Source of the DNA: a plasmid
DNA: 64,000 nt
Direction: 5' to 3' (one strand)
Assembly (NCBI RefSeq): GCF_057098645.1
Contig: NZ_JBXSPU010000002.1
This document shows, piece by piece, positions 59,001 to 64,000 of this stretch. The position numbers were made by a program. How positions within the stretch are numbered: position 1 is the first letter of the stretch; every line of letters begins with the position of its first letter.

Positions 59001-62000
59001 AAACACTCAGGTAACAACAAAAAGCATTTAAGATATTGTATTTATTATCTTTTTTAATAATCATAATGATATAGTTAATGTCATCCTTAGTGCTTCATCT
59101 ACGAGCATCGTAGACAGGGTTATAAAAGTAGTTGAGTTGGATATATCCAAAAACTGGAAACTAGGCGATGTCAGTAGTTCAATGTTTATGAGTGACTCTT
59201 GTCTGAGAAAACAATTAAGCAAAGAGAACTTAACCTTTAAAAAAATCATGTTAGATATAAAAATGAAACATGCTTCTTTATTTTTAAGAACTACTGACAA
59301 AAACATAGACGAAATATCTTGCTTGGTTGGTTTTAATTCCACGTCATATTTTATTAAGGTATTTAAGGAATATTACAACACAACACCAAAAAAATATAAT
59401 GGCATTTATTCTATTACACAAAGCACATTGCCATAATTTTTTAGAGATATTTTGAATCTTATTTGCAATGAGCACTCGAAATGAAGAACAATTTGAGAGA
59501 AGAGAAAGAAGTCGTTCTTGATGGATGTATAAATGTATTGTCATTACCTTCAGAATGGAAAGCAATTACACCTAAAAAAATAATGTCACATCGGAGATAA
59601 TAGTGTTTTTCATTCCCCCCAAGGCTTCTTATCACATTATATTAAAATATGATAACACAAAACATTGCGAATTATTTTTTTCAGACCACATCACCGGCGA
59701 ACAAGATGTTATATATTCACAAAGTGCTTTTTTCTCACATGTGATTAATCATATAATAGCTTTAGTTGATGTTCTTAATAAGAAAAGTTACGCAAGCAAT
59801 GTTATAAAATTTTTGATAACGATGGAAGGAGGCGGTGATATTCTTTCTGAATCAAAAAGAGCACCATAGTTTATCAAGTAAAAAATGACACATACACTAC
59901 TATAAATAAAGGTAATTATGGAAATAAGAGATAAAAAGGCGAAGTACTTGGAAGAAAAAGGGTTTTATAGACGAGCTGCAGATCGCTGGGCAGAGATAAT
60001 GGTACATTTATCTAGTGACGCTGAGAGAAAATTGGCAGCTCAAAAGTGTGCATTCTGCATTAATAAATCTCTACGTAATAATCTGCAAGCAGATAACTAT
60101 AGCGACATAAAACAAGGAGTTTATAAAGCATATAAGAAAATGGGGCTTGTAAATGAAAAAATATTTAGAAGCTACAAGGAAAATTAAATTATAACGTAGA
60201 TTGAGTCTAAATAACTGTTCGGAATAGTAGATCTCTCAGGGGGATCTCAGTCCGGTTTATGCTAAATAACTGCTCCTAATACCGCTACACTTTAGCCAGC
60301 CCATGTCCCCGACCGGGGAATGGGCTGACGGTATGTGCACCGTAACTGGCGCTGTTCTTCAACTGTGGTGGCTGAAGAACGACTAAGAGGTGAAAGTTCT
60401 CCACACACCCGGTGAGGGGAAGTGTTAGCGGAAGGCAAGGGTGTTCATCGCGAGGTGAAATCTGAAGGAAGCCGGATGCAAAATGCTGGCCTGACGAACA
60501 GGAAGCGGTTAAGGCGGTGCAGCGGGGTAAGGTGGTATACATCACCAAAGCCTGATACTCACACGGAACGCTGTGACGTAGAGCCGACAGGCATAAGCAG
60601 GAAAGTCGCGCGAATTACCCCGGGAGATCTGCCGTCCTGCCAGTGTGCTACCGGCGTCGTAAGGCGCAGGGATGGGGCGGCAGAAGTCAGCCGACGCCGT
60701 AGTAGTGCTGCAAAACCGGCAGCATGAAGGGCCGAACATGATTAACCGTGATTAGGACATCCGAACCCGATGATGCTTAATGAAGCACAAGCGCAGGCAA
60801 CTGCGGCCAGACGAAGCGGCCCCGCTCCAGGCGTTTGGTGAAGAGGCACAGTCCGTCGTTGTCAGCCCACAGCACTTTTATCTGGTCACCCCGGCGTCCG
60901 CGGAAGATGAACAGATTCCCGGAGAACGGGTCATCCTTCAGGACGTTCTGAACTTTTGAGGCCAGGCCGTTAAAACCATTTCGCGGATAAGTGTCTGTAA
61001 TAACGCCGGTGTCAGTTCATCTTTCAGCCTGAGAGTTCCGGCCGGCAGAACCAGCTCACAGCACAGACTGTCGGACGGTGTATTTATCTGCTCTGGTTCC
61101 TGTGCCGGATCTGGGATTTTATTATCCGGCTCCGGCGTTAACGTCACGGGAAGCAGTGCAGTCATATTTTTTCCGGAAGGCAGCAGGCCACCTTTCCGGT
61201 ATTGATGGCGCCAGTTGAAGAGCAGGTTATCATTGATTCCGTTTTCACGGGCGATCTGCGCCACACGGGCTCCGGGCTGCAGTGACTGTTCCACTAAGGC
61301 GATTTTAAACTCATAAGGAAAATTAGGCCGCCGGGGGCATTTTTTTACCACCGGGACTTCGGACATAACGGTGTTTTCAGTAAGTACGACAGATACTGTG
61401 GAGGCACTCCCGTAAAGACGGGCATCAAGTTCCCGCTCCGACATACCTGCGGGCAGAGGCCATGAAAGGCCAGCTTTGCGGAAGCGCACGAACATACCAC
61501 AAACTGTTGATTTTGGTACGCCCAGGCGATGTCCGGCCACAATCCGTGGTAAATGTTCTTCAAAGTGAAGACGTAAAGCTTCAGTGATCCAGGTCCGGTA
61601 TTCCATACGATAGTGTCCATTAAAAATGATGGACATTATTTTTGTGGAGCCGGAGGAAACAGACCGGACGGTTCAGATGAGGCGCTTACGAACAAACTGA
61701 AACTGAAGGTGAATGAGAAGAAGAGCGCGGTGGCGCGCCCGTGGGAGCGGAAGTTCCTCGGGTACAGTGTGACATGGCACAAACAGGCGAAGCTGAAAAT
61801 AGCCCTGACGAGCGTGAAGAGGCTGAAGGAGAAAGTCCGCAGTCTGACCACGGGAAACCGGAGCAAATCAGTGAAAGCGACAATCAATGCCCTGACGCCA
61901 GTGCTGCGTGGATGGATAAGCTACTTCAGGCTGAGGGAAGTCAGAGGAGTGCTGGAAGAGCTGGACGGCTGGATCAAACGGAAACTGCGGTGCCTGTTGT

Positions 62001-64000
62001 GGCGGCAGTGGAAGAGTCCGGGAACCCGGACGAAGAACCTGCAAAGAGCGGGGCTGAGTAAGGACAGGGCGATGAGCTCAGCGTACACGTGTTTGCCCGC
62101 CGGTATGTCTCTTTCAGGTGTTTTAACAGACTGATAAATAAGGACGAACCTTTACTGTTCCCACCAACGTAGCTGACTTTTCCCGTACCGCTGTGCAGCG
62201 CACCGGCAAGATAGTACTTTTCATTCTGACCCGGCGTGACAACGCGCTTTTGCTGCCCACGTAGCTGCCAGTCTGTGCGCTGACAAAACGCAGACGGTTA
62301 CCGCACAGTATGCATTTCAGCGGGTCAACCTTCAGTAACTGCTGGTAAATCCCTCTCAAGGTGATTTGCCTCGCCGTTTTTCTCACCGTCTCTGTTATGA
62401 CGTACACCACGTCTTCCAGTAACCGGCGTTTCGCCGGACTCAGGAACCCGTAGTACCTCACCATACGGAACCCCTTATCCGCCACATCATCACCACTCAT
62501 TAACAGATATTCTTCCCGTTTTGTACGGTGGCTGTTATAAAGCAGTCCGATTTCATCCTGACTGGCATAGTGCTCCAGTCGGCTCATTGGCACCGGCGGC
62601 TTTTTCAGGTAAGAGCATGAGTACACCGCCACATGCGTGGCGTTACCCATCACCCCGGATACGTTGACATTCCAGCCGCGGCGGTAATGACTGTCCAGGA
62701 AGCGATTCCATTCCCGTTTACTGCTTCCTTCAGCAACCAGCTCATCCTGTATCAACAGTTCCGGGTATTTCCGTGACAGCAACCGTGTTATCCGGTAGCA
62801 CCACATGCTCATCATCTTACGGGCGTAAAAATGAAGGTTTTTCCAAGTGTGACCTGATGTCACTGCAAAATGGCATCTAAATCGATCACGGTTTGGCATT
62901 GTCAACGACGGATGAAAAGTGGCTCTTCCGCAACCTGGGTGGAGATTTTCATGCCAGTGGACTCATTACCCTCTGCCTGAGTAGTTCAAATCCTGCTCGA
63001 CCATACATCTGGCGTTTCAGCATCTTCAGGCGATTTACATGACCTTCGACAACACCATTACTCCAGCGACTACTGATTGCCTCACATATAGCTGCAGCAT
63101 CAGCTTCCATCCCCGCCGCCACGCGCCGAAATTCTGCTGAACCGCTTTCGTGGACTCGAGTGAACCAGCTGCTTAGCTGTGATTTATTTTGGGTTTTCAG
63201 AATACGGTAGAACTCGAGTGCCAGTTGCTGCGCTATTTTCAGCTCCGGTTCTTTTTCACACATCAGACTAACAAATCGGGAAGCATAATTTTCTTCATCC
63301 TTGGTTATTCTCCAGGGCATCAACCAGCGGCTTACCCGGGACACTGAAGGAAGTCTGACGGCAGTAGTAACCGGTGGGTTCCAGCCTTTACGCCATTTGG
63401 CAACCGCATCCCTGACGATGGTTTCACTGCCTGTAAATCCCCGGGCCACCATTTCCCGCCATATCCGGCTGGCGTTATAATTACCACTTTCTCGTTGCTC
63501 TTTTAACCACTCCCTCCATGGGTCCAGAAGCCCTCGCTTTGGAGGTCGGGTTGACATTTCAGGGAATGTTCCTGAACGCACCCAGCGACTGACTGTCACA
63601 CGCGACAGGCCTGTAATACGGGATATTTCCCTGAAACTACATCCCTTGTTATGCAGGGCCATAACCTCTGTCCAGCGCTGATGCCGTTTTTTGCGGGTTT
63701 GTTGTTTTAGGCGTTCCGGATGACGGAGCGATGCTGCAGGCACAGATGGTTCTGGATCAGGTGATTTCTTTGGTGACAACTCACTGGCAACAAGACGTAT
63801 CAGAGGTATATGTCTGTACATCATTCGTTCAAGCGCATCGCCAATATTTTTTAGCAGATGCCATCGATCGGCCACCTGTCTGGCCTGAGGTGCACCTTCA
63901 CGTGCTGCTGTCGCATAGACTCCACTGCGATCACGCGAGACAACCTGTATTTCCGGATATTTTCTGAACCAGGCCGCCAGCGTACGCTGATCACGGCCGG

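Follow-up and report, generated by a model that had tools for sequence, protein, structure and literature searches.

A probable decayed E.c.I6 group II intron, split by an IS66 fragment, within an IS630-family element of an IncF-type plasmid

Our study examined a locus near one end of a 64,000-nucleotide stretch of plasmid DNA (NCBI RefSeq assembly GCF_057098645.1, contig NZ_JBXSPU010000002.1), which is referred to in its entirety as the window. At this locus two segments of a group II intron lie on the plus strand, separated by insertion sequence (IS) DNA and flanked by pieces of IS630-family elements (Table 1). An original prediction had flagged the locus as a group II intron disrupted by IS66- and IS21-family fragments. 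Three sequences served as references: L001, a locus in plasmid pE16EC1059-1 with an intact copy of the intron; L005, a plasmid IS annotated as carrying an IS630-like ISSpu2 family transposase (element at 1801-2961; protein matching NF033545 with 251 bits); and L011, a complete ISCro1-family IS66-like element.

Table 1. Features of the intron locus, in window coordinates (IEP, intron-encoded protein; RT, reverse transcriptase)
Feature	Position	Strand	Evidence
IS630-family copy X, terminal ~55 bp, end upstream of transposase gene	60207-60261	+	terminal repeat CTAAATAACTG starts at 60207
IS630-family copy Y (ISSpu2/ISEc33-like), terminal 73 bp, the intron 5' exon	60262-60334	-	match to L005
Hairpin, inner stem TCCCC/GGGGA, outer stem AGCCCATG/CATGGGCT region	60297-60327	+	fold of single-stranded DNA
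Intron ribozyme 5' part: 5' end GUGCA, domains 1-3, start of domain 4	60335-60769	+	Rfam and identity to intact copies
IEP codons 1-13, start codon included, up to deletion junction 1	60770-60810	+	alignment of window, L001 and L011
Left part of ISCro1-family IS66-like element	60811-61689 (879 bp)	-	collinear with L011
IEP codons 291-422 (end of RT domain and X/maturase domain), ending at deletion junction 3	61690-62087	+	match to L001 4303-4700, 98.5 %
Copy Y internal piece, transposase amino acids ~194-258	62088-62273	-	match to L005, tblastn

Searching Rfam at gathering thresholds, with plus-strand matches inside the flagged segment considered, revealed two group II intron domain 1-4 motifs, each over the full length of its model: RF02001 at 60444-60613 (131.2 bits, E 1e-27) and RF01998 at 60648-60732 (69.8 bits, E 2e-11). 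Both occupy equal relative positions in the intact copy. These matches bore out the predicted structured intron segment starting with GTGCA (60335) after a hairpin, and the prediction came through the search of 60331-60790 for intron domains that had been set as its test. Further downstream, a plus-strand open reading frame (ORF) of 173 aa at 61613-62134 was found by Pfam to contain the GIIM (maturase) domain (E 7e-22) and no RVT_1 domain. Its surviving piece of the IEP matches TIGR04416 positions 239-353 and is identical at 126 of 132 residues (95 %) to residues 291-422 of the L001 IEP. A maturase-only fragment had been placed on this strand at 61640-62134; the maturase assignment stood, but the coordinates did not, as the intron-derived part is 61690-62087 and the ORF is a chimera of an IS66 end, intron and antisense IS630-like sequence.

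A megablast search of PLSDB with 60200-62300 gave two kinds of match, comprising either the whole 2.1 kb or the two intron pieces within one uninterrupted element annotated ltrA. The L001 intron starts with GTGCG at 2980, ends with ...CCTACTCGAT at 4898 and contains a 462-aa RT/maturase ORF (3434-4822) followed by domains 5 and 6 (D5/D6, 4827-4898). Window 60337-60810 corresponds to L001 3001-3474 with 97.7 % identity and the 3' piece matches as given in Table 1, both collinearly and in the same orientation, and identity of the pieces to plasmid copies is 97-99 %. Identity to the E.c.I6 copy of CFT073 is 95.4 % for the 5' piece and 93.8 % for the 3' piece; by the naming rule of Leclercq & Cordaux (2012, PMC3522654), at least 90 % nucleotide identity to the reference intron (the 10 % rule), the remnant is E.c.I6. 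Their survey lists E.c.I6-1a at CFT073 NC_004431 4320108-4321914 and assigns it to class C, and delimiting the CFT073 intron by its GTGCG and CTCGAT ends gave exactly these coordinates and a length of 1807 bp. This is the chromosomal E.c.I6 type, located between grpO and grpP, whose 5' end GTGCGCCGTGACTGG the window copy shares apart from two substitutions. Two class C features were seen in the intact relative: the L001 IEP has RVT_1 and GIIM only, with the endonuclease domain absent, and its D5 is shortened by a 4-nt deletion relative to the Rfam consensus. E.c.I6 is its name in the Zimmerly group II intron database. Taken together, we place at about 90 % the probability that window 60335-62087 (plus strand) is the dead remnant of one copy of this class C (IIC) intron, decayed in place.

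The remnant has diverged slightly from its relatives. It starts with GTGCA at 60335-60339, compared to GTGCG in 7/7 relatives, and this G5>A change at 60339, within the conserved 5' boundary GUGYG, is private to the window copy. There are 10 private substitutions in total, eight in the 5' piece (476 nt) and two in the 3' piece (398 nt), among them G at 61935; seven of the eight in 60335-60810 are C>T or G>A transitions, a deamination-like decay spectrum. An apparent 19-nt deletion at the 5' end of the window intron relative to L001 was rejected, as CFT073, L003, L008 and L009 also lack those 19 nt, which represent an insertion in L001, L004 and L010. This insertion (GGGCATGGCGCGTAGCGCC-type; L001 2988-3006) directly follows the first 8 nt of the intron and can form a small extra stem-loop (GCGCC...GGCGC) that the window, CFT073, L008 and L009 do not have. 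All available E.c.I6 copies are >93 % identical, which makes covariation in the ribozyme uninformative.

Much of the intron has been lost. Only codons 1-13 and 291-422 of the 462 IEP codons are left, with 828 bp of RT-coding sequence of the intact copy (codons ~14-290) exchanged for 879 bp of foreign DNA. At the 3' side, intron homology stops at 62087 (L001 4700), upstream of the D5/D6 of L001, so that ~200 nt are gone, comprising the end of the ORF (last ~40 codons), D5, D6 and the 3' splice site. This truncation, through a deletion reaching into the IS630-like element, was missed by the original prediction. No D5/D6 match (RF00029) was found by Rfam on the plus strand after 60335 near the remnant, and when the missing intron parts were sought across the window the sole match was a 63-bp D5 stump at 46190-46252, in a different IS3/IS91 context, which cannot complement the remnant.

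This stump is a third group II intron scrap in the window. It lies on the plus strand, is nearly identical to the IEP stop codon, D5 and the start of D6 of an E.c.I6-type intron (L001 4802-4864), and fills the space between an IS3 copy, whose right end is at 46189, and an IS91-like end that begins at 46253. Its RF00029 score in Rfam (28.3 bits) is below threshold, it is without D6, and its combination of junctions occurs in only three complete E. coli genomes.

As it is without D5, the branch-point domain D6, the 3' splice site and RT, the remnant is unable to splice or move. A remaining function, whether as an intron that is split or splices in trans, as a maturase acting alone or as a structured element in the 3' untranslated region of perC, might be suggested by the high Rfam scores of the ribozyme 5' part, by its location on the perC strand 150 nt past that gene, and by the 87-aa 'maturase-specific domain' protein that RefSeq gives at the remnant. 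We regard such a function as extremely improbable: D5/D6 are absent in cis and the one further E.c.I6-type D5 that the window has belongs to the stump without D6, the ORF has chimeric ends and no RT domain, the conserved G5 is mutated, and the E.c.I6 family is widely present as decayed copies. The ORFs across the remnant are chimeric leftovers, and judged from its sequence the element has no function now.

The DNA between the two intron pieces was traced to a single source. Window 60804-61690 is collinear with L011 2501-2681 and 2755-3468 at 97 % identity, and the IS66 end GTAAGCG... (reverse complement GTAAGCGCCTCATC...) adjoins the intron exactly between 61689 and 61690. The filler contains the left end, the 5' leader, tnpA (from 61636 downwards) and 181 bp of tnpB (60804-60984), and in this much it resembles ISCro1-family IS66 elements (tnpA-tnpB-tnpC). 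It differs from the complete element in being truncated inside tnpB, in the absence of tnpC and the right end, which makes it a fragment rather than a complete IS66 member, and in a 73-bp deletion over the tnpA/tnpB junction. This deletion, at the 8-bp repeat CATTTCGC (60977-60984), fuses tnpA to tnpB and generates a 232-aa ORF (60938-61636, minus strand) that begins at the native TnpA start and shares 95 % identity with the 225-aa TnpA of L011 across 220 aa. In identical plasmids RefSeq annotates it as a normal IS66 TnpA, its last ~12 residues being tnpB-derived.

The original prediction had described this interval as a gap of about 850 bp, which measured 879 bp, filled by minus-strand IS66 orfA/orfB and IS21 istA fragments. 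The replacement of the N-terminal half of RT within one intron held (codons ~14-290, the N-terminal and central part), and the presence of IS66 tnpA/tnpB sequence was confirmed, which favours such a patchwork, with the 3' side intact to 62134, as far as it goes. An 'AGLSWPLP' helix-turn-helix in the N-terminus of the 232-aa ORF, presumably similar to some IS21-family IstA N-termini, was also counted for it. However, the debris is one IS66 fragment, which accounts for all of 60804-61690, and the IS21 component did not hold. The ORF matches the IS66 TnpA equivalog NF038385 (NCBIfam, 279 bits, aa 13-207), IS21 models of NCBIfam and Pfam gave no match to it, and BLASTP against the window's true IS21 IstA (47069-48241) showed no significant similarity (E 0.04-0.06). 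Neither is the tnpA an IS21/IS66 chimera specific to this locus, as 2097 genomes contain a match to this ISCro1-type IS66 sequence, and in 1345 the match spans at least 80 % of the query. What had been read as istA is the N-terminus native to ISCro1-type TnpA, a protein whose extra N-terminal ~100 aa are covered by no Pfam model. With intron homology ending at 62087 and D5/D6 missing, an intact 3' side is refuted as well, and the patchwork as a whole is considered very unlikely.

The intron pieces are bracketed by IS630-family DNA. A distant BLAST search with 60188-60334 matched >2000 plasmids, at the annotated ends of IS630-like ISSpu2/ISEc33 elements. Two copies meet upstream of the intron: window 60205-60262 matches L005 2961-2904 at 84 %, representing the opposite IS end in inverted orientation (copy X), and window 60261-60334 matches L005 1801-1874 at 92 % (copy Y), with copy X truncated where copy Y starts. 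Read on the minus strand, the copy Y end contains the last ~16 transposase codons (tblastn aa 329-343) with the stop codon, together with the inverted repeat. Copy Y restarts after the remnant, ~210 bp deeper into the IS than the intron insertion point, with window 62080-62273 matching L005 2084-2277 at 90.7 % and the transposase piece 93.8 % identical over 65 aa (tblastn), until it is cut at 62273/62274 by an IS91-family fragment (Y2_Tnp on ORF 62123-62905). The traits of the IS630 family, a terminal inverted repeat and an IS630-type DDE transposase, are thus present at the remnant as fragments only. A separate, isolated 43-bp IS630-like terminal repeat (CTAAATAACAGCTCCTAATACCGCTACACTTTAGC) at 33336-33378 ends before the hairpin.

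The hairpin that the original prediction had called conserved is indeed present, and is here identified as part of the IS630-family element end. Folded as single-stranded DNA it has a free energy of -13.4 kcal/mol (z -2.8), and a 7-nt spacer, ACGGTAT, separates it from the intron. Class C introns have been reported to insert downstream of stem-loops, intrinsic terminators among them (Robart, Seo & Zimmerly 2007, cited in PMC3522654), and attC-associated IIC introns have also been described (PMC7923331). In all seven independent E.c.I6-type sites that were compared, the window included, the intron lies 7-10 nt after a hairpin and the exon ends in (G/T/C)TAT; several of the seven hairpins are textbook terminators, for example GCCAGCAG...CTGCTGGCTTTTTGTTAT/GTGCG in the grp island (here and below, a slash before intron or exon sequence marks the junction). 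Since hairpin, ACGGTAT and GTGCA fit the pattern of the other copies, the 5' junction in the window is a genuine class C insertion footprint. The intron lies a few nucleotides 3' of a stem-loop and has a very short intron-binding site 1 (IBS1), GUAU, at the 5' exon end, with which the candidate exon-binding site 1 AUAC (60537-60540, in the loop of GGUG-GUAUACAU-CACC) would pair. The mechanism is no different from that of other class C introns, although only the footprint of insertion remains in the window. The CFT073 copy follows the same insertion rule (hairpin, 7-10 nt, TAT), but the target hairpin in the window is inside an IS630-family transposase gene, on the antisense strand, rather than at a gene terminator.

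This position raises two further ideas, which we consider improbable: that the hairpin just inside ISSpu2/ISEc33-type IS630 ends is a reusable class C landing pad, or that the ribozyme 5' part is a structured 3' extension of the perC transcript. If the former were true, IIC introns would have a third type of target in addition to terminators and attC sites, with IS630 elements as their vehicles. When complete E. coli genomes were searched by BLAST for the 5' junction, six records came back, each carrying this decayed arrangement with 100 % identity, and since the junction occurs in these only, it represents a single event and not a recurrent homing site. A second copy of the hairpin in the window, at 56377-56415 with 6 mismatches in 39, is unoccupied.

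In PLSDB the 2.1 kb were found in nine E. coli plasmids, among them pCAU16175_2, at 99.9-100 % identity, all decayed, from humans, dogs, swine and wastewater, and the exact 5' junction gave two matches in metagenome contigs, both decayed and 99.7-99.9 % identical to the window. As the arrangement is identical in the nine plasmids and the two metagenome contigs, it is a single lineage.

All three deletion junctions carry microhomology of 6-8 bp. At junction 1, between the intron and IS66 tnpB, the 7 bp CGGCCAG (60804-60810) are common to both parents; within IS66, 73 bp were lost between two copies of the 8-bp CATTTCGC; and at junction 3, between the intron and IS630, ~6 bp (AGCGTA) are shared around 62080-62087. 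Because of this microhomology at 3/3 junctions, we infer that they are illegitimate, microhomology-mediated deletions and not transposase-made joints. Copy Y is collinear on both sides of the remnant, which is most simply read as one insertion that decayed in place. In such a history, copy Y would first have inserted 55 bp inside the end of copy X, just downstream of perC, and the intron would then have retrotransposed into copy Y, antisense to the transposase gene and 7 nt after the hairpin (GGTAT/GTGCG). An ISCro1-type IS66 element would have entered the intron ORF between codons 290 and 291, followed by three deletions: one of ~2.6 kb, which began in IS66 tnpB, took tnpC and the right end and extended into the RT-coding region, the 73-bp deletion within IS66, and one removing the last ~200 nt of the intron together with ~210 bp of copy Y. 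Truncation of copy Y by the IS91-family fragment at 62273/62274 would have come last. In this account identities, boundaries, collinearity and the missing D5/D6 are direct observations, and the sequence of events and the way the deletions arose are deduced from them.

An alternative history is that fragments of two different E.c.I6 copies were juxtaposed by IS-mediated recombination. The replicon is an IS mosaic containing another E.c.I6-type fragment (46190-46252), and private substitutions are more numerous in the 5' piece than in the 3' piece, both of which would fit. Yet the two pieces agree in orientation and order, they have their nearest matches in the same plasmid-type copies (L008, L009 and L001) and not in the chromosomal CFT073 type, collinear parts of one IS630-like element flank them, and their junctions are simple microhomology deletions; we therefore consider two source copies unlikely. 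Some observations do weigh against one copy decayed in place. No intact intron in this IS630-like site turned up in PLSDB or GTDB genomes, in complete E. coli genomes or in metagenome contigs, and, with no ancestral record found, it is from collinearity only that the in-place history is drawn. The predicted 3' junction pattern gave two matches in GTDB genomes, both unrelated. In addition, the microhomology at the 3' junction is approximate, as the IS630 reference is only ~91 % identical, and the D5 piece at 46190-46252 shows that there are other E.c.I6-type fragments in the replicon, so that recombination between copies is a possible contributor.

The surroundings of the locus include a virulence-plasmid-type region at 52088-60187, immediately upstream of the nested IS630 ends, with a 1327-aa autotransporter (52088-56071, minus strand), a putative C-terminal fragment resembling an AraC-family regulator (59137-59436, recognized by eye) and an intact perC homologue (59918-60187; Pfam PerC, E 4e-40). 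Between the first two lies intron 1 (56343-58430, minus strand), which looks intact, with an RT at 56554-57780 and D5/D6 at 56470-56547. An alignment of the maturase fragment with this RT, proposed as a check on the original prediction, found the two unrelated beyond a generic RGWxxY motif (BLASTP E 0.03), and for lack of meaningful similarity the two introns are placed in different families. Intron 1 also adjoins an IS630-like end (56343-56451), the one that holds the unoccupied hairpin copy, and has a 28-bp IS66 tnpC-like stretch (56442-56469) on its 3' side. Its 5' side (58272-58430) is IS91-like and recurs at 46254-46450 and in >1000 plasmids, and about 50 genomes had near full-length copies of intron 1. 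This intron might be E.c.I3, an intron that targets the IS66-family element IS679. Elsewhere in the window, four ALIL frameshift pseudoknots (RF01497, ~120 bits each; 18763-18879, 22904-23020, 32152-32268 and 40655-40771) suggest four IS3-family copies.

The E.c.I6 family was matched in 1266 of 5426 complete E. coli genomes, near full-length in 833 of those. The copies known to the 2012 survey had disrupted ORFs only. An uninterrupted 462-aa RT/maturase ORF is found in E.c.I6-type copies on plasmids (L001 2980-4898, L010 2977-4895 and one further match) at several different hairpin sites, and on this basis the lineage may still be, or may recently have been, mobile. The window copy differs from the CFT073 copy in having lost IEP codons 14-290 and the final ~40, both D5 and D6, and the 3' splice site, and in carrying an IS66 fragment.

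The Enterobacteriales survey of Leclercq & Cordaux (PMC3522654) recorded 111 group II intron fragments (55 distinct), mostly on plasmids, in islands and in IS-rich regions; for most of them the genome in which they lay contained no active counterpart, and E.c.I6 copies had disrupted ORFs. This IS630/IS66-associated remnant was not among the fragments in the sections of the survey consulted, and intact copies with the 462-aa ORF are now in the databases. The remnant is nevertheless of an already known kind, a named intron of a well-described class that inserted and decayed as described for Enterobacteriales.

In summary, the finding is biologically minor, representing the fossil of a known E. 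coli retroelement in an IS-rich region of an IncF-type plasmid with perC and a serine-protease-type autotransporter. It does correct annotation, as two proteins given here by RefSeq, a 'maturase-specific domain protein' and a 232-aa 'TnpA', are truncated or chimeric remains, and the scar is usable as a marker of plasmid lineage. The locus adds one more case of bacterial group II intron decay, in which IS hits would have been followed by microhomology deletions, in agreement with the extinction dynamics described for group II introns of Enterobacteriales.

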